In this document: positions 25,954 to 35,229 of the stretch, in pieces
How the letters are laid out: each line of letters begins with the position of its first letter
Numbering within the stretch: the stretch's first letter is position 1
From: a virus
Strand: one strand, 5' to 3'
Virus record (IMG/VR): IMGVR_UViG_3300045988_078204
DNA: 48,726 nucleotides
Made by a program: the position numbers and the translations under genes
Notes under the pieces: generated by a model
Seen by the model: the letters and a program-made list of their open reading frames with translations, nothing else
What the model was told of the DNA's origin: nothing
Databases searched by the model: none

Positions 25954-28668
25954 GTGACAGCAGAAGAATTATTAAAACAAATGTCAGCCGAACCGTTTGC
26001 GGAAGAGATGGTCTGTTGCGTTATTGATCCGGAAACAAGGGTCATTGATGTTCCGGCAGAATACCAACTTCTCGGTGTCGAATCTGATGAGAAAGTGGAG
26101 CGGATGTATTTCCAGTGCCCGAAGATTGTCGGAGACAATATTGACCTGTCCAAATTGGCTTTGCGTGTCAATTTCCGGAACGCAAACGATCAGAAAGATC
26201 AATACATTGTGGATGATGTAGAAATCTCTGGGGATAACATTACGTTTTCGTGGCTCCTTTCCAGACGAGTGACGCAGTATAAGGGTAACGTCAGCTTTAT
26301 TGTGTGTGCGGTGAAAGCATCAGGGGAAGAGATTACAAATGAATGGAATACTACGCTTGCAACAGCCCAGGTTTTGGAAGGTCTGGAAGCAGATATTACA
26401 CTTCCGGAAGAAGATACGGATGTGGTAAAACAGTTAATCGCTGTTGCGACACAGAAAATTACAGATGTACAAAATGCAACTTCTTCCGCCAATACCGCGG
26501 CCAGCAACGCAGATATAAAGGCACAGGAGGCCGCCAACGCCGCCGAGGATGCCCGTGGAGTGATAGACCAGATCACGAAAGACAGTTATCTCCACACGAC
26601 TACGCAGACGTTTGTAGATACGGTGAAAGCGAGTCCTACCGCCTATGGAAACGCCATCCCGGAACAGATTGAGGGGTACATCAAACAGGATACGACAAAA
26701 GGGTTACAGTTGTTTGATGCTTCATGTCTTTCAGCGTCAAAAACACAGGGAGGAGCTACGGTCGTCAATAACGGAGACGGTAGCTTTACGGTTAGCGGGG
26801 ATGGGAATTTGACGGAAAATTTTAGTATGTCTTATAACTTATCACACGAAGATAGCTTGAAGCTATTCCCTGTTGGAACTTATCAGATTACGAGAAAACA
26901 GATTAGACCATCGTTTTTTGTTCAAATCAGAGGAGGCAGGCAACATACAATTTCGAGTATTAGCAAACCTGGCGATGTACTGTCTATATTAGAAGAAGAT
27001 ACGCAGAATCCTGATTATTATATACAGTTCTTATTTTATGGCAACGCTATAGACACGATTAAGCCCGGTACAATCAAACCGATGGCGTGGGCTAGTGCCG
27101 AAGTTCCTCAAGACGCAGATTGGGAACCCTACACTGGAGGACAGCCTTCCCCGAATCCTGACTATCCTCAGATTGTTCATGGTGTCGGGGATATGGGATT
27201 CTTTGATGGGGAACTTGTGCAAGGCTCATACAGAATAGCAGACGGTTCTTTCGGATATGGCGATAGAAGATATATCAGTAATGCAAATAAAATACCGTGC
27301 CATCAAGGAGATATGGTGACGCTACAATATGACGGTGATTGCAACGGCGTTTATATTCATTTTTATAAACAAGATAATAGTTTTATACAAAGTAAAAATG
27401 TGGTTGGAAATAAAGTTTCATTTGTAGCTCCGACAGGTACGGGATATTGTAATATAACGATTTACAAAGCAGATAGTATTTTTGTTGCATCAGCCAAACA
27501 CATTACCGTAACCATCAATGATAAATACGCCGTATGTGTCAAATCTAAGGGAAAGAATTTGCTTAATTTAACCGGAGAAATACTATACAGCTTCGGAAGA
27601 GAAACTATTTTTGACAACCAAGTAACAATAAAGCCAACTACAGACGGCAGGACAGCTCCCGGAGTTTGGTTCGTTTTAGGTGACATTAAAAAGTTTTTAG
27701 GAAAAACAATATACGTCAAAGCTGATGCTATCCAGCGATCCGGTAATTATAATCCCCGAATGTTGTTAATGACGATAAAGGGTAATACATCCGTGCGTAC
27801 CTATTTAACATATTCGTATAGCAAGGCCGGACAGGTGATGAGTGTTAAAATACCAGATGACTTGGATACAAACGAAGCATCTGATTTGGCTTTAAATATG
27901 TATGTAAATGACGGATCGTCGCAGGTGGATGCTGACGCATATGCGATATTTACAAATGTCTATGCCGGGTTGTCGGAACCCACTAACGAATTCGTCCCTT
28001 ATCAGTCCAATGTAACGTATATCCCTGTCGATTACCCGCTGTTTGAGGGGGATAAGATCGTAAGGCGTAATGGGGAGTATAAGCTGTTAAGGAAATGGAA
28101 ACAGGAGGTTTTCGATGGTTCGGAAGATGAGGGTTGGGTGCAAGGTAAATCCAACACAAATCAATTTTATACTAGTCAATACAAAGAAAAGAAAGTAAAT
28201 GCCGATATAGTATCAAATCGATTTAAACATGCTACCTCTGTTGAACCGCCATCGATATGGATTGGAAACGACATTAATATATATTTTGAATCTGGATACT
28301 TAGACAATAATACTATAGCCGGATTTCAAGAGTGGTTACAAGAGAATCCGGTTTCTTGTGTCTATGAACTAGCCACACCAACCGAAGAACCCCTTTCATC
28401 CGAAGCCATGAAAGCCCTATACAGCATCATGGCATGTGATGAGGAAACGGAGCTGACGATTGTCGGTGTTCCGTCGGATGCGGAAATCCAGAATCAGTTT
28501 TTATTGCCACGAAATGAGGACGGGGCTTTAAACACAACAGCGTATTGCACGGCCAAGCGGAACGAGATTGCATTGGAAGAGCTGGTATCACAGTCACTTG
28601 ATGCACGTGTCAACAAACTCGAAGTTGACAACGAATCGCTGAACTTACAGACACTAATCGTAGAATAA
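25954..28668 (+). CDS. tail fibre / receptor-binding protein
   Basis: 904 aa. GTG start after AGGAGGG. Position and size fit. Confidence 0.65.
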   Translation: MTAEELLKQMSAEPFAEEMVCCVIDPETRVIDVPAEYQLLGVESDEKVERMYFQCPKIVGDNIDLSKLALRVNFRNANDQKDQYIVDDVEISGDNITFSWLLSRRVTQYKGNVSFIVCAVKASGEEITNEWNTTLATAQVLEGLEADITLPEEDTDVVKQLIAVATQKITDVQNATSSANTAASNADIKAQEAANAAEDARGVIDQITKDSYLHTTTQTFVDTVKASPTAYGNAIPEQIEGYIKQDTTKGLQLFDASCLSASKTQGGATVVNNGDGSFTVSGDGNLTENFSMSYNLSHEDSLKLFPVGTYQITRKQIRPSFFVQIRGGRQHTISSISKPGDVLSILEEDTQNPDYYIQFLFYGNAIDTIKPGTIKPMAWASAEVPQDADWEPYTGGQPSPNPDYPQIVHGVGDMGFFDGELVQGSYRIADGSFGYGDRRYISNANKIPCHQGDMVTLQYDGDCNGVYIHFYKQDNSFIQSKNVVGNKVSFVAPTGTGYCNITIYKADSIFVASAKHITVTINDKYAVCVKSKGKNLLNLTGEILYSFGRETIFDNQVTIKPTTDGRTAPGVWFVLGDIKKFLGKTIYVKADAIQRSGNYNPRMLLMTIKGNTSVRTYLTYSYSKAGQVMSVKIPDDLDTNEASDLALNMYVNDGSSQVDADAYAIFTNVYAGLSEPTNEFVPYQSNVTYIPVDYPLFEGDKIVRRNGEYKLLRKWKQEVFDGSEDEGWVQGKSNTNQFYTSQYKEKKVNADIVSNRFKHATSVEPPSIWIGNDINIYFESGYLDNNTIAGFQEWLQENPVSCVYELATPTEEPLSSEAMKALYSIMACDEETELTIVGVPSDAEIQNQFLLPRNEDGALNTTAYCTAKRNEIALEELVSQSLDARVNKLEVDNESLNLQTLIVE

Positions 28669-28683
28669 GGAGGTTGATACAGA

Positions 28684-29160
28684 ATGTACGAAAAATTGAA
28701 GCAGGCAATACAAGACGGGATGTATACAGTTACAGAAGCGGTAAATCTTTTAAATGCATTTTTGCAAACCGGACAGATTACAGCAGACCAATTTACGGAA
28801 TTATTTGAAATGACAAGAGAACTTCCGGCCAATGGGGAAAAAGAAGAATCCGAGATCGCCCAAGATAATAAAGAAAAAGAATGGCAGGAATACAAAGAAA
28901 AGATAGACAAGATGTGGGATAAGTTTACTGAATCTGGCGTAATCATACCTGATCCCGAACCGGAAGAACCGGACGGAAGTAAGGAGCATCCTATCCCGGC
29001 AACCAATAATATGCAGTACTATGAAGGAAAATACTATACCTACAACGATGTATTGTATAAATGTAACCGGAATACAGATATCCCAGTATGGCATACTCCA
29101 GATCAGCTTGTAGGTATTTATTTTGAAATTGTACCGCAGGAGGAAGAGGATGAAATTTAG
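28684..29160 (+). CDS. XkdX-like N-terminus with C-terminal CBM5/12-like motif
   Basis: MYEKLKQAIQDGMYTVTEAVNLLNAFLQTGQITADQFTEL resembles XkdX. YYEGKYYTYNDVLYKCNRNTDIPVWHTP resembles a carbohydrate-binding W/Y motif. Confidence 0.5.
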   Translation: MYEKLKQAIQDGMYTVTEAVNLLNAFLQTGQITADQFTELFEMTRELPANGEKEESEIAQDNKEKEWQEYKEKIDKMWDKFTESGVIIPDPEPEEPDGSKEHPIPATNNMQYYEGKYYTYNDVLYKCNRNTDIPVWHTPDQLVGIYFEIVPQEEEDEI

Positions 29161-29482
29161 AAATTTTAAAGATAGTCTTTCCACATTGGGGGGGGTATAT
29201 TGTGCTATTGAAGGCTGGGGAATCCTGAAATGTGAGAATGCCAATGTTTTAAAAGCTGGAATTTCTACAAAGGTTGGCGAAACCTGTTTGACCGGATATC
29301 CAAAGGGAACAGAGAAAAGTTGGGGCATCCTCATCACATTTGTTGTAGGTGCGGATTTCTCACAGATTTTTTTGAGTTATACAGGAAGTGGGCTGTACAT
29401 ACGTGGCGGTTCCGCATCTGGTGTTGTTGGAACAAAGTGGTATAAATATAGCCGACAATCGGAACAGATTGATTCAATATAA
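29150..29482 (+). CDS. poly-G ORF A (110 aa)
   Basis: ATG 29150 lies after GGAGGAAGAGG. The N-terminus is MKFRNFKDSLSTLGGVY. The G8 tract encodes the GG. The track ORF 29123..29482 is in the same frame. Confidence 0.55.
   Translation: MKFRNFKDSLSTLGGVYCAIEGWGILKCENANVLKAGISTKVGETCLTGYPKGTEKSWGILITFVVGADFSQIFLSYTGSGLYIRGGSASGVVGTKWYKYSRQSEQIDSI
29188..29195 (+). repeat. homopolymeric G8 tract
   Basis: Counted directly. It starts 38 nt after ATG 29150 and is followed by TAT. Confidence 0.9.
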
Positions 29483-29495
29483 GGAGCGTGAAAAG

Positions 29496-29960
29496 ATGAA
29501 GTTTAAAGGAATAAAAGATATTTTGCTGGGGGGGGGGTATGAGATAGATTCTATATATAAAGGTATTGATGGCGGTGGATGGCGCAGGGCTTATAAGATT
29601 TCCAATACAAATCAGGGTGCATATGGATATTGCGGAGAGTTTTGTATTGCTGGACAGTTCAACAATGGGAGTAATGTTTCTATAATATTCAGTGTTGTTA
29701 CCGCATATATGGAAGCAAGTTTGAGAATCCATAATTTTGTTGGGTCCACTGTTATAGACAAAATAAGGATAACAAAAAATAATGATACCGACGAACTAAA
29801 TATTGATTTTCACTATAATACCGTAACCGCAAATGTGTATGGATTCAAAAAAATATCGGGATACAAACAGAATAGTTCGAAGGAATCATATGCGGATTTT
29901 AAGGTTGTACCAAGTCAACCAGATAGCGAGACCATTATGACAGAAGTAATTGTACAGTAA
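29496..29960 (+). CDS. poly-G ORF B (154 aa)
   Basis: ATG 29496 lies after AAGGAG. The N-terminus is MKFKGIKDILLGGGYE. The track ORF 29388..29960 is in the same frame. Confidence 0.55.
   Translation: MKFKGIKDILLGGGYEIDSIYKGIDGGGWRRAYKISNTNQGAYGYCGEFCIAGQFNNGSNVSIIFSVVTAYMEASLRIHNFVGSTVIDKIRITKNNDTDELNIDFHYNTVTANVYGFKKISGYKQNSSKESYADFKVVPSQPDSETIMTEVIVQ
29528..29537 (+). repeat. homopolymeric G10 tract
   Basis: Counted directly. It starts 32 nt after ATG 29496 and is followed by TAT. Confidence 0.9.
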
Positions 29961-29972
29961 GGGAGGAAAATT

Positions 29973-30080
29973 ATGCAGAAAAAGAAGATATCTGAAATTC
30001 TATCGGGGGGGGGAGGGTATCTCGATGGGGGGTATCCGGCGTACTGGAAGAAAGTGACGGAGGAACCACTCTATTTGTAG
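29973..30080 (+). CDS. poly-G ORF C (35 aa, possibly a truncated third paralog)
   Basis: GGGAGG lies 6 nt before ATG 29973. Reads MQKKKISEILSGGGGYLDGGYPAYWKKVTEEPLYL. Confidence 0.35.
   Translation: MQKKKISEILSGGGGYLDGGYPAYWKKVTEEPLYL
30005..30013 (+). repeat. homopolymeric G9 tract (a further G6 at 30027-30032)
   Basis: Counted directly. It starts 32 nt after ATG 29973. Confidence 0.9.
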
Positions 30081-30134
30081 CAAGTTTACAGGTGTAAAAG
30101 AATAATTTTAAATTTTACGATGTAACGAGGAAAA

Positions 30135-30335
30135 ATGAAGATTTATGATTTTACCATACTGGAATTAAACTATTTCCGGACATATTGTAATTTTACAGAC
30201 GACGAGCGGACATTGTTTGAGTATAGAGCTAAACAATATCCGCTCGAATACTGTGCTGAGTTAATGAATGTGAGTATATCCACAATCAAAAGATTAAGCA
30301 GAAAAGTAAATAACAAGATTATTCGTGTATGCTGA
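30135..30335 (+). CDS. small sigma-region-4/LuxR-like HTH protein
   Basis: 66 aa. FTDDERTLFEYRAKQYPLEYCAELMNVSISTIKRLSRKV looks like a region-4 HTH. Confidence 0.5.
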   Translation: MKIYDFTILELNYFRTYCNFTDDERTLFEYRAKQYPLEYCAELMNVSISTIKRLSRKVNNKIIRVC

Positions 30336-30416
30336 TACTTTTTTGATACTTATATGAACTGTTTGAATCACATCCTTGGTATTATACTTAAAGCATAAAG
30401 ACAAGGAGGCAAGCAG

Positions 30417-30860
30417 ATGCAGTATTTTAATCCTTATTATCAGCAACCAGTACAACAGCAATACAACCCTTTACAGCCTCAGTATGACAGGCTTGCACAG
30501 ATGCAGGCGCAATATAACCAGCCTACTTTTACACAACAGCCAAGCCTTAATGGGGAAATTGTAGACAGTGTTGACGTTGTACGTGCGAAAAATGTGGATA
30601 TGTCTGGCAACCCTACATTTTATCCTAAGTCAGACATGACAGAGATCTACGCAAAACAGTTACAAGCTGACGGTACAAGCCGGATCATTACTTATAAAGC
30701 AGTTATGCCAGATGATCCCAAGCCAGTTGAACAGTCATCTGTAAACTTGGAAGCAATGCTGTTACAGATTAAGAATGATCTTTCAACTGAGATCGCAGGA
30801 TTAAAAGAAATGATTCAAAGTGAGCCTCCTAAAACACAAAGAGGAGGATCGCAAAAATGA
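30417..30860 (+). CDS. hypothetical protein with Gln/Pro/Tyr-rich N-terminus
   Basis: AAGGAGG RBS. Reads MQYFNPYYQQPVQQQYNPLQPQYDRLAQMQAQYNQPTFTQQP, followed by a globular part. Confidence 0.6.
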   Translation: MQYFNPYYQQPVQQQYNPLQPQYDRLAQMQAQYNQPTFTQQPSLNGEIVDSVDVVRAKNVDMSGNPTFYPKSDMTEIYAKQLQADGTSRIITYKAVMPDDPKPVEQSSVNLEAMLLQIKNDLSTEIAGLKEMIQSEPPKTQRGGSQK

Positions 30861-31090
30861 TGAATCCGGTACAATTTGTAAAAATGATGCGTGGAGGAAA
30901 TCCGCAGAAAGTAGTCATGGATATGATGCGAGAGCAGGCTGGAAATAATCCGGTTATGCGAAACGCAATGCAAATGGCAGAAAAAGGAGATTCGGAAGGA
31001 ATCGAAAAACTTGCACGAAATCTTTGTAAAGAACAGGGAATCGATGCGGATGAAATGGTAAATAAGATTAAATCTCAATTTGGTGTTTAA
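30857..31090 (+). CDS. small helical hypothetical protein
   Basis: 77 aa. ATGA overlap with the upstream stop. GAGGAGG RBS. Confidence 0.55.
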   Translation: MMNPVQFVKMMRGGNPQKVVMDMMREQAGNNPVMRNAMQMAEKGDSEGIEKLARNLCKEQGIDADEMVNKIKSQFGV

Positions 31091-31161
31091 CATCGTACAA
31101 TATAGCAGACAGCCCGGGATGTCTCTAATTGTAAATATATTGCAAAAGGAGACAAAAATAT

Positions 31162-31899
31162 ATGATGAGTTCAGGTATGAGTGCAGCGGATGTAGCTGTG
31201 CTTACAGGTAATGCCGGAAATTCCCGTGGCTGTAATGATGGCTTCGGCGGAGAGGGTTGGGGATGGATTTGGCTTATCCTTATCTTCGCAATTTTTGGAG
31301 GCTGGGGAAATGGTTTCGGCGGATTTGGAGGAAACGGCGGAGGATTTAATACTCCTGGTTTCCAGGGATACGCAACGCGTAGTGATATAGATTCTGCGCT
31401 CTCTACTCAGGGTATTGAGTCTGGAATCAATGGAATTGGAACACAGCTTTGTAATGGTTTTGCTAGTGTTAATTCCAATATTAGCAATCTTGGCTATCAA
31501 TTACAGGATTGTTGCTGCCAGACACAGAGAGCGGTCGACGGTGTGAATTATAACCTTGCCGCACAGACAAACATTTTGCAAAATACCGTAAATAATAATG
31601 GAAATGCAATTCAGCAGGCTCTTTGCAGCGGATTTAGGGATGTGATCGACGCACAGAACGCCGGAACACAGAGGATCGTTGATCTGTTTACTCAGGACAA
31701 GATCCAGTCTTTACAGACTGAATTACAGTCCGCACAGCTCCAGCTCAGTAATGCAGCGCAGACAACAAACATTGTCAACGCATTGCGTCCTACACCGGTT
31801 CCGTCTTATCCGGTAATGAGTCCGTATACGTCTATCATCAATCCTACGGGATTCACATTTGGCGTAAACGGCTGTGGATGTAATACGTGTGGTTGTTAA
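31162..31899 (+). CDS. Gly-rich, single-TM, Cys-rich hypothetical protein
   Basis: AAGGAG RBS. The GFGGEGWGWIWLILIFAIFGGWGNGFGGFGGNGGGF segment is hydrophobic and Gly-rich. It has 10 Cys, including DCCCQ and the C-terminal GCGCNTCGC. A strong terminator follows. Confidence 0.65.
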   Translation: MMSSGMSAADVAVLTGNAGNSRGCNDGFGGEGWGWIWLILIFAIFGGWGNGFGGFGGNGGGFNTPGFQGYATRSDIDSALSTQGIESGINGIGTQLCNGFASVNSNISNLGYQLQDCCCQTQRAVDGVNYNLAAQTNILQNTVNNNGNAIQQALCSGFRDVIDAQNAGTQRIVDLFTQDKIQSLQTELQSAQLQLSNAAQTTNIVNALRPTPVPSYPVMSPYTSIINPTGFTFGVNGCGCNTCGC

Positions 31900-31957
31900 A
31901 TAGTATCTTCCCTACGGGAACTTTGAGAAACGATCTCAATGTTACTATTGCCTATTT

Positions 31958-31991
31958 GGGGATAGATACTAGGTCTATCCCCTTTATTTTT
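31958..31991 (+). terminator. intrinsic terminator
   Basis: GGGGATAGA-TACTAGG-TCTATCCCC followed by TTTATTTTT. Confidence 0.7.
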
Positions 31992-32010
31992 GTATAAAGG
32001 AGATAATAAT

Positions 32011-32421
32011 ATGATTGAATTACTTAACCCGACGCCACAGACCGTAGCGCCTGGACAGGGCGTTGTTTATTCCGAAGAAATTTCAAGTAAATGTTCCGCA
32101 GAACGCCACAGAGCCGGAAGCGCCCAGCTTACTCTTGTTAAACCAGGACGCTATCTTGTTGGATTCAGTGGAAATGTAGCAATTCCGGCAGGTGGAGTAG
32201 TTGGCGAGGTGTCTCTTGCCATTGCATTAGATGGGGAGCCAATCACTGGATCAGTGATGCGAGCCACTCCGGCGGCAGTATCTGAATACTTTAATGTAGC
32301 TACTCAGCACTATATTGATGTTCCGTGTGGATGCTGTCAGACGGTGACTGTACAGAACACAGGTGTTGCAGCCGTACAAGTTGATAATCCAAACCTTACA
32401 GCAGTCAGGGTATGCGGTTAG
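32011..32421 (+). CDS. hypothetical beta-rich protein, possibly a BclA-C-terminal/C1q-TNF-like jelly roll
   Basis: ATG 32011 lies after AAAGGAG (the track starts at TTG 31990). The pattern LVKPGRYLVGFSGNVAIPAGGVVGEVSLAIALDGEPITGS...TVTVQNTG...NLTAVRV resembles exosporium BclA C-terminal-domain topology. Cys motifs PCGCCQ and RVCG. Confidence 0.5.
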   Translation: MIELLNPTPQTVAPGQGVVYSEEISSKCSAERHRAGSAQLTLVKPGRYLVGFSGNVAIPAGGVVGEVSLAIALDGEPITGSVMRATPAAVSEYFNVATQHYIDVPCGCCQTVTVQNTGVAAVQVDNPNLTAVRVCG

Positions 32422-32433
32422 GAGGTGCTGAAT

Positions 32434-33201
32434 ATGAGCGAACATTACGAATTAATCAAAAAGATTAAAGATATTGCAAAGCAGGACATTGAACAGATGT
32501 CGGCAAACGGATATGACAATATTGACCGGAAATGCTTTGGTGAATCAGTAGATATTTTGAAAGATGCGATGCAGATGGAGTATTTTTCCGCAGAAACAGC
32601 AAAAGCCTGTCTGGAAAAAGAATACATGGAGATGATAAAAATTCCTAACAAAATTATGGAGGGCGAGCTGACGAAACGGATGGTGGAAGACTATGACGAT
32701 TCCGAAAATGACCGATATGGATATCGTGGACGCGCCAGAAATGGAAGGTTTGTTCATCGTTCCGGGCGTGGACGTTCTGCTGGATATATGCCATACATGC
32801 ATATTCCGGAAGAGTATGAAAATGACTGGATGGAAGACGAATTTCCTCCGATGATGACCGGCTATAGAATGGGATATCCTAATCGGGATGACAGAAACAA
32901 TATGGACGGAAATGGATGGAGCGGAAACCGGTCTGGAGATCATTCAAGATATGGATATGAACCGGAACGAAAACGATCGAAATATGGTGACGCTTATGAT
33001 CGATACGATAACTACCGTAGGCATTACACCGAAAACAAAGATACGGAATCCAAGAAAAAAATGGAGGAGTCCATGACCGAAATCTTTAACGATATGGAAG
33101 ATATGGTGGAAAGCGTGATGAAATATGCAGATGCATCGGAAAAACCGGCGCTGAAACAGAAAATTGTTCAGATGGCACAGAAAGTACAGTCGATGAATTA
33201 A
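32434..33201 (+). CDS. hypothetical protein with Arg/Gly/Tyr/Asp-rich low-complexity centre
   Basis: ATG 32434 is 8 nt after GGAGG. The centre reads DRYGYRGRARNGRFVHRSGRGRSAGYMPY...GYRMGYPNRDDRNNMDGNGWSGNRSGDHSRYGYEPERKRSKYGDAYDRYDNYRRHY. Both ends are helical. Confidence 0.6.
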   Translation: MSEHYELIKKIKDIAKQDIEQMSANGYDNIDRKCFGESVDILKDAMQMEYFSAETAKACLEKEYMEMIKIPNKIMEGELTKRMVEDYDDSENDRYGYRGRARNGRFVHRSGRGRSAGYMPYMHIPEEYENDWMEDEFPPMMTGYRMGYPNRDDRNNMDGNGWSGNRSGDHSRYGYEPERKRSKYGDAYDRYDNYRRHYTENKDTESKKKMEESMTEIFNDMEDMVESVMKYADASEKPALKQKIVQMAQKVQSMN

Positions 33202-33206
33202 TGGAT

Positions 33207-33239
33207 AAGAGCCTTAGCAATACAGCTATGGCTCTTTTT
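33207..33239 (+). terminator. intrinsic terminator
   Basis: AAGAGCC...GGCTCTT followed by TTTT. Confidence 0.55.
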
Positions 33240-33253
33240 GCGAGGTGAAATAA

Positions 33254-33634
33254 ATGAAGTTTCGAATGAATGGGATCTTATGGACTGTTCGATTTGTACA
33301 TCCGTCTGATCCGATTTTGATTGACAGGACAGGTAAAAAGACTTGCGCTGTTACAGATCCAGATACCATGTCAATCTGTTTGTCAGACGACTTATCTGGT
33401 TCGTTTTTAACTACTGTAGTTCTCCATGAACTAGGGCATGTGATGCTTTACAGCTACGGCTACTTAGAAGATATACACCGTATGTGTAAAAAGAGACATT
33501 GGATCGAGATGGAAGAGTTTATCTGCAATTTAATCGCAGACAGGGCGAAAGAGATCTTTTCCAGAGCTTATGAAATTGTCGGAGATGAAGCAATACATTT
33601 TGTACCGATCTATTTAGAAAGGATGGTGGCGTGA
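33254..33634 (+). CDS. putative Zn-metallopeptidase (HExxH)
   Basis: 126 aa with VVLHELGHVM. WTVRFV....L........G.TD......I.LS is an opening typical of small phage ImmA/SprT-like peptidases. Confidence 0.55.
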   Translation: MKFRMNGILWTVRFVHPSDPILIDRTGKKTCAVTDPDTMSICLSDDLSGSFLTTVVLHELGHVMLYSYGYLEDIHRMCKKRHWIEMEEFICNLIADRAKEIFSRAYEIVGDEAIHFVPIYLERMVA

Positions 33635-33691
33635 TGATAAGGGATGCTCCTATTTAATAACAGATAAAATACAAGAAAGGAAAGTGAGGAT

Positions 33692-34165
33692 ATGAAAAAA
33701 ATGAATTATGCAGAACCTTTTATCGATGGATACAATGCAGTGGTAGGGACGATTGTTGCAGTTCTGTCTTATATTTTAGGGGAACACTGGGTACTTTTTG
33801 TTGCGTTTCTTCTGCTTAACGTAGCGGACTGGCTGACGGGATGGATGAAAAGTCGGATAGCCGGGAAAGAAAATTCTATGACAGGATGGAAAGGTGTTCT
33901 TAAGAAACTTGGATACTGGTTGATGGTTATGGTCGCTTTTGGTGCTTCTGCTGTATTTATAGAAATAGGACATACGATTGGAATTGATCTAGGAATTACG
34001 ACACTTCTCGGCTGGTTTGTCTTGGCCTCTTTGTTAATCAATGAGATCCGATCCATATTAGAAAATTTTGTGGAAGCCGGATACAATGTTCCTACAATCC
34101 TTGTGAAAGGTCTGGAAGTAGCTGATAAGGTGGTAAACCAAAGACAAAACGATGAGGAGGAATAA
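33692..34165 (+). CDS. holin (toxin-secretion/phage-lysis holin family, 4 TM)
   Basis: 157 aa. LLLNVADWLTGWMKS...GWKGVLKKLGYW...LINEIRSILEN is characteristic. It lies immediately upstream of the endolysin gene. Confidence 0.8.
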   Translation: MKKMNYAEPFIDGYNAVVGTIVAVLSYILGEHWVLFVAFLLLNVADWLTGWMKSRIAGKENSMTGWKGVLKKLGYWLMVMVAFGASAVFIEIGHTIGIDLGITTLLGWFVLASLLINEIRSILENFVEAGYNVPTILVKGLEVADKVVNQRQNDEEE

Positions 34166-35197: not shown

Positions 35198-35229
35198 TTT
35201 TCCTCCAGAGCCTTCACTCTGGAGGAAAA
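35198..35229. terminator. bidirectional-looking hairpin after the lysis genes
   Basis: TTTTCCTCCAGAG-CCTTCA-CTCTGGAGGAAAA. Confidence 0.55.

Follow-up and report, generated by a model that had tools for sequence, protein, structure and literature searches.

Gene Content and Boundaries of the Locus

The window analyzed here is the whole 48,726-nucleotide stretch of viral DNA (IMG/VR record IMGVR_UViG_3300045988_078204). Between its tail and lysis modules lies a cluster of seven genes, g1 to g7 (Table 1). ORF calling recovered all seven on the plus strand between positions 30135 and 33634, with compositions matching those given in a preliminary description of the sequence. The flanks agreed as well: a 904-aa tail fibre lies upstream, and a Phage_holin_4_1 holin and an Amidase_2 endolysin lie downstream. 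Each gene is preceded by a Shine–Dalgarno site of the GGAGG/AGGAG type. Searches against Pfam and NCBIfam placed none of the seven proteins above the curated cut-off of any model.

At the left edge, 99% DNA identity with an IMG/VR copy of the same phage starts at 30032, beside a poly-G run; the preceding segment (28585–30032) is swapped for other sequence in that copy. At the right edge, DNA homology with cassette-less phages restarts at about 33668, shortly before the holin gene.

Table 1. Positions of the cassette genes and associated elements in the window.
Feature	Position	Strand	Length	Description
Left edge and g1 upstream region	30032..30134	+		DNA identity boundary
g1	30135–30335	+	66 aa	Sigma-70 region-4-type HTH
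Tandem direct repeat	30334..30351	+		GATACTT-N4-GATACTT; overlaps the g1 stop codon
g2	30417–30860	+	147 aa	P/Y/Q-rich N-terminus, 'DRLAQLQ' helix, conserved small beta-domain, C-terminal helix
g3	30857–31090	+	77 aa	Met/Gln/Asn-rich helical protein
g4	31162–31899	+	245 aa	Signature protein of the cassette
g4–g5 structured leader	31900..32010	+		Hairpins H1 and H2, terminator H3, U-run, g5 RBS
g5	32011–32421	+	136 aa	Standalone TNF/C1q (BclA_C/ExsF-like) jelly roll (predicted)
g6	32434–33201	+	255 aa	N-terminal helical pair, R/G/Y/D/M low-complexity core, conserved C-terminal helix
Second terminator-like hairpin	33207..33239	+		Between g6 and g7
g7	33254–33634	+	126 aa	HExxH (HELGH) putative zinc metallopeptidase; last cassette gene

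The Signature Protein and Its Partners

The layout of g4 comprises a short hydrophobic helix between GGWGNGFGGFGG, a helix of about 120 residues with an invariant CCC triplet, a PxPAY motif, and a terminal GCGC cysteine cluster. Invariant columns were taken from alignments A2 and A8, and the secondary structure from AF2, whose monomer model of g4 was poor (pLDDT 53). The periodicity of the long helix is 3.6–3.67 residues. The ten cysteines noted earlier are at positions 24, 97, 117–119, 155, 238, 240, 243, and 245, and glycine makes up 15% of the protein. The hydrophobic stretch that had been described as a single transmembrane segment does exist, but it is short and borderline (KD19 1.48, KD15 1.94) and has no flanking Lys or Arg, which leaves membrane insertion and topology uncertain.

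The protein matched phrog_16490 (7e-68), and its family is large: 7,993 of 8,000 scored candidates reached E ≤ 1e-5, and at least 3,458 clusters were obtained (representatives at 50% identity). The family has no Pfam model and no name. The top 150 representatives range from 127 to 340 aa and all terminate at the Cys tail; none is a g4–head fusion, which counts against the model proposed below.

The g2 protein (14% Gln; family alignment A5) matched phrog_21718 (8e-31) and nothing in the PDB. It was found in 24 of 26 scanned loci, the exceptions being a 5'-truncated locus (L004) and a crAss locus. Methionine accounts for 14% of g3. The g3 and g4 proteins are 35% and 40% identical, respectively, to their counterparts in C. 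perfringens phages. When the sequences were compared by eye, a g3-like Met-rich segment appeared joined to the g4 N-terminus in the Bacteroides and crAss versions. The g2, g3, g6, and g7 proteins contain no stretch hydrophobic enough for a TM segment and none that resembles a signal peptide.

For g5, the AF2 model (pLDDT 94, pTM 0.89) and Foldseek confirmed the suspected BclA C-terminal/C1q fold, and the predicted structure is a TNF/C1q jelly roll. The best PDB matches were F-BclA (6e-8, TM 0.80), ExsF/BxpB (TM 0.78–0.80), and BclA (TM 0.73). The Pfam BclA_C match (E = 1.2e-5) stayed under the gathering score, while phrog_20016 matched at 1e-51. The BFVD neighbours are standalone gut-phage proteins of 130–143 aa (TM 0.84–0.90). 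Peak hydrophobicity falls inside predicted strands of the confident all-beta model, and the protein carries a conserved CC pair and a C-terminal Cys. The mechanical ORF begins at TTG 31990; the ATG at 32011 agrees with the family alignment and the RBS. In many cassettes this slot is filled by an unrelated Cys-rich family, S5b, whose members are related across phyla (HHalign probability 98–100%).

The g6 protein (family alignment A7) contains 20 Tyr, 20 Arg, and 22 Met. Its variants in other loci bear DUF7841, which is significant in both the Bacillota and the Bacteroidota branch. In g7, residues H58-E59-L60-H62 and E87-E88 are invariant (alignment A6), and matches were obtained to DUF6782 (4.8e-4) and phrog_1233 (2e-8). 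It accompanies the cassette at non-lysis sites in L004 and L005; many of the 26 diverse loci have no detectable peptidase.

Regulatory Elements

The first gene is the presumed regulator of the cassette. Matches of g1 to Pfam Sigma70_r4/r4_2 were weak and below cut-off (E about 0.015–0.02), and phrog_1190 matched at 4e-6; for the L105/L106 homologue, confident matches to Sigma70_r4 and r4_2 are on record. The gene lies 5' of g2 in 12 of the 26 diverse loci. A consensus scan revealed a weak promoter-like site upstream of g1 (30085–30114, 9/12 matches) and no canonical sigma-70 promoter between g1 and g2, which we count against our model. The GATACTT tandem is unique in the window, even with two mismatches allowed. 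It recurs 3' of the g1 stop in L025, L008/L009, and L006, and in L097 both copies read TATACTT. It is a candidate operator to which g1 may bind.

Two strong terminators had been described. Of the first, placed at 31958–31991, the part at 31958–31982 was borne out as a 10-bp stem with a T-run and compensatory changes. The consensus scan missed the second, but its hairpin folds and its position is kept in relatives. The g6–g7 spacer forms an interrupted stem of about 11 bp (−16.4 kcal/mol), and a strong hairpin with a U-run occupies this position in each of L003, L004, and L005.

The g4–g5 leader consists of a variable hairpin H1, a conserved hairpin H2 (AUGUUCGGC-loop-GCCGAUAUU), and the terminator H3 (31958–31982). 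RNAalifold found double-sided compensatory changes in 7 of 12 pairs, and individual folds gave an equal layout in more than ten divergent loci. An alternative pairing of the 5' arm with the terminator can be folded in the window, L003, and L005, so that antiterminator pairing is possible. No Rfam family corresponds to this leader. The g2 and g3 genes overlap by 4 nt and g5 and g6 are 12 nt apart; in most other loci, the g5 stop and the g6 start are 10–15 nt apart or overlap. With this spacing, g3 is translationally coupled to g2, and g6 is tightly coupled to g5. The conserved terminator leader divides the cassette into coupled sub-operons, g2-g3-g4 and g5-g6(-g7).

Distribution and Mobility

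The cluster had been described as self-contained, with its own small HTH, and a search for the same gene set in other phages supported this. The set behaves as a movable insertion. The order g1-g2-g3-g4-slot5-g6(-g7) was the same in all 26 diverse loci, each of which contains g4; therefore, the clustering is not due to chance. Bacillota-type loci are collinear for g2-(g3)-g4-slot5-g6.

At least six genomic positions harbor the cassette, and these differ even among close relatives. Cassettes whose g4 proteins are 72–83% identical occupy three distinct contexts: before the holin (window and L003), before the tail fibre (L004), and between the capsid/connector genes and the head–tail adaptors (L005). 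Of 78 contigs with a 73–88% identical holin, 77 lack the cassette. These cassette-less relatives are mosaic, and their DNA-level sharing with the window is limited to the holin, a point against our model. The cassette is missing from phages whose fibre and lysis genes are homologous. The seven genes form a mobile unit that has crossed unrelated genomic positions and phage lineages. Its terminators, variable insertion site, and absence from holin-sharing contigs also back the earlier moron-like reading. The cassette is found in thousands of gut phages, and only one match was obtained among 72,556 plasmids.

A true g4 with all signature motifs is encoded by the plaque-isolated Bacteroides uniformis phage C3_41T2LP (HMM E = 1.5e-47; BLASTP 35% over 164 aa, E = 7e-14), and g4 is also present in crAss-like Suoliviridae. 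Its neighbours there are a homologous Cys-rich beta-protein, a DUF7841 protein, and an HExxH peptidase. Among 80 Bacteroides-type loci, g4 and a g2-like gene were present in 80 each, DUF7841 in 79, the peptidase in 77, and a slot-5 protein in 75. Cassettes are thus built around the same signature protein in phages of Bacillota and Bacteroidota. Between the phyla, g1, g2, g6, and g7 show weak homology or none that can be detected (HHalign probability 0.6–42%), which speaks against our model.

Alternative Functions

It is possible, though unlikely, that the cassette specifies non-essential decoration, fibre, or ejection proteins, which would be added on or in new virions while these are still in the cytoplasm; g5 would be a lectin-like knob, and the Cys residues would become cross-linked after release. 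The cassette always runs in the direction of the late genes and often lies inside structural operons: between MuF and scaffold/capsid in L006, L008, L026, and L102, and between capsid/connector and tail in L104 and L005. Receptor-binding domains of phage tail fibres (8ke9, 9k09) and viral fibre proteins of the collagen/BclA type are further matches of the TNF-like fold. Signal peptides are absent from all of the soluble proteins, and the g2-like protein of the Bacteroides cassettes matches phrog_473, 'virion structural protein', at its C-terminus (E = 1.4e-8). However, the carriers have unrelated virion architectures, from siphovirus-like prophages of Lachnospiraceae to crAss-like podoviruses, and several lineages have the cassette beside replication or recombination genes. 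Its own HTH and terminators, and the membrane-type helix of g4, would be at odds with a virion role. The g2-like relatives in deposited phages are all annotated as hypothetical only, and a search for proteomic evidence found none.

An accessory role in lysis or egress is unlikely. According to this explanation, the Gly-rich hydrophobic segment and long helix of g4 would, at a late stage of infection, disrupt or fuse membranes as a spanin, disruptin, or class-I fusion protein does, and g7 would prime g4 by cleavage. The holin directly adjoins the cassette in the window and L003, with no terminator between g7 and the holin, and the crAss cr53_1 cassette comes after a holin and a LysB-like gene. 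Inspection of ORF lists by eye pointed in the same direction: an apparent M15-type endolysin precedes the L015 cassette, and small TM-plus-coiled-coil proteins precede those of L006, L007, L011, and L017. The only PDB profile matches of g4 were HA2 and paramyxovirus F, over the fusion peptide/coiled coil, but at E about 0.07 these fall short of significance and probably reflect composition. Many cassettes are distant from lysis genes (L005, L104, the Bacteroides phage), monoderm hosts lack the outer membrane that fusion would require, and the cassette contains no lipoprotein partner. Moreover, phages with homologous holins manage without it, and g2, g5, and g6 are left unexplained.

A role in inter-phage competition or defence is doubtful. 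Here, g4 would be the membrane effector of superinfection exclusion or abortive infection under the control of the HTH and the metallopeptidase, a pair likened to ImmR/ImmA or CapH/CapP. An accessory, mobile, self-regulated cassette at varying module junctions would suit this role, as would the placement of the HTH and the peptidase at opposite ends in both phyla. In variants, a putative peptidase-like protein of the GDCxxRA family (phrog_3754) takes the peptidase position, and the g4 helix matches the ZorA tail weakly in PADLOC (E = 1.2e-4). Nevertheless, the PADLOC models gave no convincing match for any component, g1 resembles sigma-r4 rather than Xre, and the peptidase often goes undetected. 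Plasmids are nearly free of the cassette, and it is common in crAss-like phages, which are not known as lysogens. The extreme low-complexity proteins would also be atypical of known defence systems.

The initial proposal was lysogenic-conversion cargo that alters the spore, exosporium, or cell surface of Firmicute hosts. As a general role, this is already largely refuted, and we consider it very improbable. In its favor, exosporium proteins head the structural matches of g5. Coat and exosporium proteins are Cys-, Gly-, Gln-, and Tyr-rich, a make-up that the cassette resembles, and they lack signal peptides because they are assembled in the mother-cell cytoplasm, so the missing signal peptides would fit them too. 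The minimal HTH of g1 can be likened loosely to GerE, and most Firmicute carriers are Lachnospiraceae or Oscillospiraceae, many of which sporulate. However, the cassette family also occurs in the B. uniformis phage and many crAss-like phages. Bacteroidetes are non-sporulating; a role as spore cargo is therefore improbable. The crAss-like phages infect Bacteroidetes (PMC10136315). Furthermore, no SigE/SigK consensus was found within the cassette, sub-threshold BclA_C was the sole coat or exosporium match in Pfam/NCBIfam, an unrelated protein can substitute for g5, and plaque-forming C. perfringens phages carry the cassette. A secondary, lineage-specific use in sporulating Clostridia is conceivable.

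Proposed Model

We favor, with a probability of roughly 0.4, the reading that this locus is one representative of an accessory cassette that is widespread in gut phages, moves horizontally, regulates itself, is not spore-specific, and encodes a membrane-associated assembly. The g1 protein would bind the tandem repeats and control the g2–g4 operon. In the infected cell, the short Gly/Trp-flanked hydrophobic helix of g4 may enter the cytoplasmic membrane, and the protein may oligomerise through its long polar helix, which would measure roughly 18 nm if helical throughout. The Cys rings of g4 (the CCC triplet and the terminal GCGC) could staple the bundle by metal or disulfide into a thiol-rich stalk, with g3 shielding or chaperoning g4. 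The slot-5 beta-protein would dock as a multivalent hub, here an ExsF-like trimer of g5 and elsewhere S5b. The low-complexity g2 and g6 proteins may be assembly partners or matrix, and g7 may trim or mature one component. We found no match of this model to any characterised system.

The cassette is probably an uncharacterised phage accessory system. Its assembly would act in the lytic cycle on a target common to monoderm and diderm hosts, that is, the cytoplasmic membrane or the cytoplasm. The most plausible putative role is the modulation of the envelope or egress, or the exclusion of competing phages.

Organization of the Cassette

All seven open reading frames that the preliminary description had placed at 30135-33634 were found there on the + strand, each preceded by a GGAGG/AGGAG-type ribosome-binding site. 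They encode a 66-aa HTH protein (g1), proteins of 147, 77, 245, 136, and 255 aa (g2-g6), and a 126-aa HExxH peptidase (g7). The cassette is ordered as g1, a candidate operator, g2-g3-g4, a leader with terminator T1, g5-g6, terminator T2, and g7. g2 and g3 overlap by 4 nt, and g5 and g6 are 12 nt apart. The start of g5 was set at ATG 32011 instead of an upstream TTG, in agreement with the family alignment and the Shine-Dalgarno site. The compositional claims were borne out: g4 contains 10 Cys, including DCCCQ and the terminal GCGCNTCGC, and 15% Gly. Gln makes up 14% of g2 and Met 14% of g3, while g6 has 20 Tyr, 20 Arg, and 22 Met residues.

The cassette is flanked upstream by a 904-aa tail fibre and downstream by a Phage_holin_4_1 holin and an Amidase_2 endolysin, followed by an integrase on the opposite strand. 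Because 99% identity to an IMG/VR copy of the same phage (L107) begins at 30032, the block was taken as bounded at roughly 30032-33668. In this otherwise 99%-identical copy, a 512-bp segment replaces a stretch that includes the region of an XkdX-like 158-aa gene and an unannotated 190-aa ORF; the right breakpoint lies within a poly-G run, and a second G-run occurs further upstream. The gap that separates the endolysin from the convergently oriented integrase gene contains a perfect inverted repeat of 13-14 bp, with T-runs on either strand; it is likely a bidirectional terminator closing the late operon.

Recurrence, Position, and Mobility

We compared 26 diverse loci from MAGs of Lachnospiraceae, Oscillospiraceae, Christensenellales, and Clostridiaceae, from C. 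perfringens phages, and from Dulem virus 35. g4 was present in all 26 and g2 in 24 (iterated HMMs), the exceptions being the 5'-truncated locus L004 and the crAss locus. g5 and g6 occurred in most loci, g1 in 12, and g7 in the closest relatives. The C. perfringens phages XP41-N3 and CPD1 carry collinear genes for 147-, 77-, and ~210-aa proteins, with 35% identity for g3 and 40% for g4. The orientation matched that of the neighbouring genes everywhere, and the position was variable (see the table). Three different contexts were found among cassettes with a g4 72-83% identical to that of the window, and g7 moved along.

A holin 73-88% identical to that of the window was encoded by 78 IMG/VR contigs. 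The cassette was absent from 77 of these, the exception being the window's own phage. Where the cassette-less contigs also encoded a homologous fibre, the fibre-holin distance was ~0.4-1.5 kb. These relatives are mosaic, their DNA homology covering the holin only, from ~33668; the fibre-lysis architecture can thus do without the cassette, which does not imply that an isogenic deletion is viable. The stronger statement, that the cassette is missing from near-identical phages, was toned down, the holin being all that those relatives share at the DNA level.

The proposal that the region is a moron held as regards its variable presence and its movement as a block (77 of 78 contigs without it; three positions). 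Its terminators are genuine and conserved, and a promoter of its own is putative. Like phage morons, the cassette is self-contained, has its own regulator, and lies at module junctions. Classical morons consist of one or two genes expressed from the prophage, whereas this is a conserved 5-7-gene cassette, in which we found no independent sigma-70 promoter. Since its orientation is always that of the lytic genes and its carriers include crAss-like and plaque-forming phages, it probably acts during lytic growth. We conclude with high confidence that the region is an accessory cassette of gut phages, mobile and self-contained, and bound neither to one virion architecture nor to a host envelope type or to sporulation. 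Its cultured carriers are the C. perfringens phages CPD1, XP41-N3, 17DYC, HMD-PC1, and PMQ04 and the Bacteroides phage C3_41T2LP, which makes its function directly testable.

Coordinates and genomic contexts of the features discussed (L-numbers are homologous loci from other phages, prophages, MAGs, and IMG/VR contigs)
Feature	Locus	Coordinates	Remark
Segment replaced by 512 bp in L107	window	28585-30032	
Second G-run	window	29186-29195	
Unannotated 190-aa ORF	window	29388-29960	
Poly-G run	window	30005-30035	right breakpoint
Tandem GATACTT-N4-GATACTT	window	30334-30351	overlaps g1 stop codon
g4-g5 leader	window	31900-32010	~115 nt
Homologous leader spacer	L006	8667-8787	
Homologous leader spacer	L011	8685-8806	
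Homologous leader spacer	L102	7475-7615	
Terminator T1	window	31958-31982	leader hairpin H3
Terminator T2	window	33207-33239	g6-g7 spacer
Inverted repeat	window	35198-35229	
phrog_3754 GDCxxRA protein	L013	3669-4040	
phrog_3754 GDCxxRA protein	L015	9916-10290	
phrog_3754 GDCxxRA protein	L017	9939-10313	
phrog_3754 GDCxxRA protein	L019	2369-2752	
phrog_3754 GDCxxRA protein	L011	6824-7123	
phrog_3754 GDCxxRA protein	L006	6000-6380	
SNDxLxxELxKQD protein	L007	8699-8920	directly after g4
SNDxLxxELxKQD protein	L008	8699-8944	directly after g4
SNDxLxxELxKQD protein	L013	2202-2456	directly after g4
SNDxLxxELxKQD protein	L001	6845-7045	after slot-5 gene
SNDxLxxELxKQD protein	L015	10292-10549	further downstream
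Homing endonuclease	L010	6765-7436	- strand
Homing endonuclease	L002	5125-5748	
Homing endonuclease	L103	3934-4554	
Homing endonuclease	L185-L264		33 of 80 loci
Region with in-frame TAG	L101	2838-7879	crAss cr53_1, Suoliviridae
444-aa ORF ending in g2 homologue	L003	6364-7698	Drancourtella MAG prophage
Context: tail fibre to holin	window, L003, L011		
Context: MuF-like minor head protein to scaffold and capsid	L006, L008, L026, Dulem virus 35		
Context: capsid/connector to head-tail adaptors and tail	L104, L005		
Context: tail to primase/replication genes	L007, L105, L106		
Context: lysis/antirepressor to Gam/Erf recombination genes	C. perfringens phages		
Context: after recombination genes	Bacteroides phage		
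Context: holin and LysB-like gene, cassette, virion genes	crAss cr53_1		

Occurrence Across Phyla

Phage C3_41T2LP, plaque-isolated on Bacteroides uniformis, encodes a true g4 (HMM E = 1.5e-47; BLASTP 35% identity over 164 aa, E = 7e-14) with the motifs GGWGNGFGG, QCCCD, PAPIPAY, and a terminal GCGCGC. Its neighbours are an HTH protein, a Cys-containing beta-protein, a protein with a beta-domain and a coiled coil, a 77-aa R/G/D/Y/E low-complexity protein, a DUF7841 protein, and an HExxH peptidase. In the Bacteroides-type branch (80 IMG/VR loci), g4 and a g2-like gene were found in all 80, DUF7841 in 79, the peptidase in 77, and the beta-protein in 75. At the level of sequence comparison, cross-phylum homology is rigorous for three components, g4, S5b, and DUF7841. 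S5b, the Cys-rich beta-protein family that alternates with g5 in slot 5, gave HHalign probabilities of 98-100% among its Firmicute MSCK-type, C. perfringens, and Bacteroides/crAss versions. DUF7841 (PF25223) reached significance in the proteins of the Bacteroides phage and of crAss and in the Firmicute g6 variant of L015, and was borderline in the variant of L013 (24.9 vs 25.2 bits). For g1, g2, g6, and g7, HHalign probabilities across phyla were 0.6-42%, and the correspondence is one of position and composition only.

crAss-like phages are among the most abundant human gut viruses. The cassette occurs in many of them, mostly in Suoliviridae, and some are TAG-recoded. Most crAss-like phages have been assigned to Bacteroidetes hosts by CRISPR spacers (PMC10136315). 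In crAss cr53_1 (L101), TAG is recoded: it occurs in frame in the genes for the holin, the LysB-like protein, and virion proteins, and once in the g4 homologue. The 'spike protein/glycoprotein' of this locus is the g4 homologue, and its 'RNA polymerase sigma factor/ubiquitin-like protein' corresponds to DUF7841 plus an RG/DY low-complexity protein. These labels, together with 'outer capsid protein/viral fiber', are probably compositional artefacts in the crAss and Bacteroides phage records.

The Signature Protein g4

According to the family alignments, GGWGNGFGGFGG flanks the short hydrophobic helix of g4, the CCC triplet is invariant, and the protein also has a PxPAY motif and a terminal GCGC. 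The AF2 monomer model, built from a 91-sequence alignment, had a pLDDT of 53 and was too poor for a fold search; thus, secondary structure alone was used. The prediction, clear at this level, comprises a hydrophobic helix (34-44), a disordered Gly-rich linker, a long helix (89-208) in which hydrophobicity recurs with a period of 3.6-3.67 residues, and a tail of Pro and Cys that is disordered. Free of flanking Lys/Arg, the hydrophobic stretch is a short one (KD15 1.94, KD19 1.48). The N-terminus recalls double-glycine leader peptides, a motif kept within Lachnospiraceae-type members only. Copper or metal sequestration may be another reading of the Met- and Cys-rich motifs. A profile search against PDB sequences returned HA2/F0 matches alone, at a non-significant E = 0.064-0.1; matches of this kind probably explain the 'spike glycoprotein' labels in the crAss records.

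The g4 family saturated the word-indexed search, first with 6,769 and later with 7,993 of the 8,000 candidates scored. An exhaustive profile search yielded at least 3,458 representatives at 50% identity, of which 556 had E <= 1e-30. The best 150 were all 127-340 aa long and all ended at the Cys tail. None of the members listed from the word-indexed search had a Pfam domain or a name beyond 'hypothetical protein'. A g4-head fusion, sought as support for a split stalk-head model, did not occur among the 150 representatives. Hundreds of copies per branch were found in IMG/VR, many in crAss-like phages, and a single match in 72,556 plasmid records. HNH or I-HmuI-type homing endonuclease genes were inserted repeatedly beside g4, at differing points, in phages of the Clostridiaceae, C. 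perfringens, and Bacteroides types, which points to g4 as a frequent homing target common to co-infecting phages.

The Slot-5 Proteins

The AF2 monomer model of g5 was confident (pLDDT 94, pTM 0.89) and comprises, in its 136 aa, a jelly roll only. The predicted ten-strand TNF-like fold is that of the BclA_C/TNF-C1q superfamily. Foldseek against the PDB returned F-BclA (E = 6e-8, TM 0.80), ExsF/BxpB (TM 0.78-0.80), and BclA (TM 0.73); the BclA C-terminal/C1q-TNF fold that had been suggested for this protein proved right. In BFVD, g5 best matched proteins of 130-143 aa that stand alone in uncultured gut viruses of the sipho-, podo-, and myovirus types (TM 0.84-0.90). At the sequence level, g5 matched Pfam BclA_C (PF18573) at 25.6-25.8 bits, below the gathering cut-off of 38. 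Three of 13 family members matched PF18573 at E <= 0.01, and some closer homologues carry a precomputed PF18573 assignment. The NCBIfam GXX_rpt_CTERM match was weak (E = 0.003, 17 bits vs 50), and the profile search against PDB sequences gave no match. g5 lacks the N-terminal collagen-like GXX stalk and the exosporium-targeting N-terminus of BclA-type fibres.

The closest architectural analogue is ExsF, the trimeric hub of the B. cereus-group exosporium, which holds the fibre N-termini. g5 shares the TNF/C1q fold of ExsF/BxpB and the BclA C-terminal domain (9h3d, 8d02, 7r1m, 1wck, 9h38; TM 0.73-0.80), and is, like ExsF, a standalone ~140-aa domain with neither collagen stalk nor signal peptide. 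By this analogy, g5 may be a hub that anchors partners. Unlike ExsF and BclA, to which its sequence identity is 11-17%, g5 has a conserved CC pair, is replaceable by an unrelated family, has no recognisable sporulation promoters, and is phage-encoded, including in lineages related to those of non-sporulating hosts. It is unrelated to S5b (HHalign probability below 4%), and slot 5 thus has two alternative occupants, one of them the TNF-like protein. An Ena/DUF3992 endospore-appendage identity for S5b was dropped, being without Pfam support.

The Remaining Components

The cassette families are recorded only as unknown-function PHROGs and one Pfam DUF. Strong PHROG matches were obtained for g2 (phrog_21718, 8e-31), g4 (phrog_16490, 7e-68), and g5 (phrog_20016, 1e-51). 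g1 reached 14.7-15.4 bits for Sigma70_r4/r4_2, below the Pfam cut-off, and 4e-6 for phrog_1190; confident matches are recorded for its homologue in L105. In g2, a P/Y/Q-rich N-terminus and a helix precede a small, conserved beta-domain and a C-terminal helix; in g6, the low-complexity core lies between an N-terminal helical pair and a C-terminal helix that is conserved. The HExxH claim for g7 was upheld by HELGH; H58, E59, H62, and E87/E88 are invariant in an alignment that includes the Bacteroides phage protein, so that both the HExxH and the downstream acidic ligand of a zincin are conserved. g7 stayed below the curated peptidase-family cut-offs (DUF6782 19.9 bits vs 27, SprT-like 13 vs 25.6) and had no PDB profile match. 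Profile searches of g2, g6, g7, and S5b against PDB sequences gave nothing useful, and no cassette protein exceeded an NCBIfam cut-off.

Further small proteins accompany the cassette. A ~124-aa family with the motif YNPNPxGxxVGDCxVRA (phrog_3754, no Pfam) flanks it in many loci and in some occupies the peptidase position held by g7 in the window; from its motif, it may be a papain- or C39-like peptidase. Some cassettes also encode a helical ~65-85-aa protein with a SNDxLxxELxKQD motif, which has no counterpart in the window. In L003, the g2 homologue ends an ORF whose N-terminal part is fibre-like (phmmer 2.8e-20 to the 904-aa tail fibre of the window); either the two genes are fused or the ORF was called too long at a recombination junction.

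Regulatory Elements

The tandem GATACTT repeat occurs nowhere else in the window. Several other loci have this arrangement after g1 as well, and in L097 both copies read TATACTT, having changed together. From this pattern, the tandem could serve as the operator of the sigma-region-4-like g1. Sigma-70-like sites numbered 19, compared with 20.5 in shuffled sequence, and none was well placed before g2. Both terminators reported earlier were recovered, the first, claimed near 31958-31991, with a shorter right end. T2 was missed by the consensus scan, yet it has an interrupted stem of ~11 bp, and the spacer folds at -16.4 kcal/mol; three homologous loci have a strong hairpin and a U-run at this place.

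The g4-g5 spacer is a conserved structured leader, with hairpins H1, H2, and H3 preceding the g5 ribosome-binding site. Of these hairpins, H1 varies, H2 (AUGUUCGGC-loop-GCCGAUAUU) is conserved, and the GC-rich H3 forms the terminator. Double-sided compensatory changes were seen in 7 of 12 predicted pairs, and the layout recurred in more than 10 divergent spacers folded singly. In the lowest-energy fold of the window, L003, and L005, the 5' arm pairs with the left arm of the terminator, an antiterminator-type alternative, and the leader may therefore be an attenuator. The Rfam search of the cassette returned only noise, and the leader has no Rfam family. Thus, a three-hairpin leader/attenuator new to Rfam and a candidate operator for a minimal sigma-region-4 HTH emerged as side products.

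Proposed Mechanism and Alternatives

We tentatively propose, with a probability of about 0.4, that the cassette builds a membrane-associated, thiol- or metal-stapled assembly active during lytic growth. g4 would be its anchor and stalk, g3 the g4 chaperone, g5 or S5b the hub, and g2 and g6 partners or matrix; g7 would act as maturation peptidase and g1 as regulator. Taken together, g4 and g5 would resemble type II membrane-anchored stalk-head proteins, such as TNF ligands (EDA), and BclA, with an anchor, an oligomeric stalk, and a TNF-like head, the g4-g5 contact being putative. In contrast to those proteins, the anchor-stalk and the head are separate polypeptides here, and the predicted g4 stalk is a polar, hendecad-like alpha-helix instead of the BclA collagen.

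An accessory of the virion is unlikely. The further PDB matches of g5 include cyanophage tail-fibre receptor-binding domains, besides TNF/C1q proteins, EDA-A1, and 4-1BBL. A lysis or egress factor is more doubtful. As in spanins (Rz-type i-spanin) and class I viral fusion proteins (influenza HA2), an N-proximal hydrophobic/Gly-rich segment of g4 precedes a long coiled coil with conserved Cys, and in several phages the cassette lies beside holin genes. Unlike spanins, it has no o-spanin lipoprotein partner, no lipobox protein having been seen on reading the cassette proteins by eye; it also occurs in phages of monoderm hosts and is often remote from the lysis genes. We consider an exclusion or defence cassette improbable. 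Like the HTH plus Zn-metallopeptidase regulatory pairs ImmR/ImmA and CapH/CapP, this mobile accessory operon has, in both phyla, a small HTH first and an HExxH peptidase last. Unlike them, g1 is sigma-region-4-like, not Xre/MerR-like, and g7 weakly matches DUF6782 and SprT, not M78/ImmA. PADLOC gave no convincing match to a defence system, its sole hit among the cassette components being the g4 helix to the ZorA tail (18.8 bits, coiled-coil type). The least probable reading is the spore-surface or exosporium cargo of the preliminary description, since the expected restriction to endospore-forming hosts fails with B. uniformis phage C3_41T2LP and the crAss-like phages (Bacteroidetes are not known to sporulate), an approximate B. 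subtilis SigE/SigK consensus had no match within 29960-33700, and g2, g3, g4, g6, and S5b had no Pfam/NCBIfam match to coat/exosporium families (CotY/ExsY, GerQ, CdeC, Ena/DUF3992) at E <= 0.1, which leaves the sub-threshold BclA_C of g5 as the cassette's one match of this kind.

The stapled assembly can be put more boldly, as a phylum-spanning gut-phage system that would build an exosporium-like, thiol-stapled protein assembly inside infected cells. We regard this as a long shot, placed between egress and exclusion. It would combine a membrane-tethered g4 stalk, a jelly-roll hub (g5 or S5b), a matrix of prion-like, RG/DY-rich, and Met-rich low-complexity proteins, and a dedicated maturation peptidase. 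It might anchor a virus factory at the membrane, or enclose progeny leaving strict anaerobes in a protective coat or matrix. If true, the likeness to spore surfaces would reflect a common assembly logic, that is, cytoplasmic self-assembly and cross-linking upon release, and not a spore function.

The cassette could be new as a system, its parts being combined in no characterised one, and might still prove an unusual form of decoration, exclusion, or egress. The module was not described in the literature searched on the cultured carriers, on prophages, BclA, and the exosporium, and on the crAss 'spike glycoprotein'. The family spans at least 3,458 clusters, yet its core components have no characterised homologue. 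A conserved, portable set of 5-7 genes that serves phages of monoderm Clostridia as well as of diderm Bacteroides points to a general, undescribed phage function.
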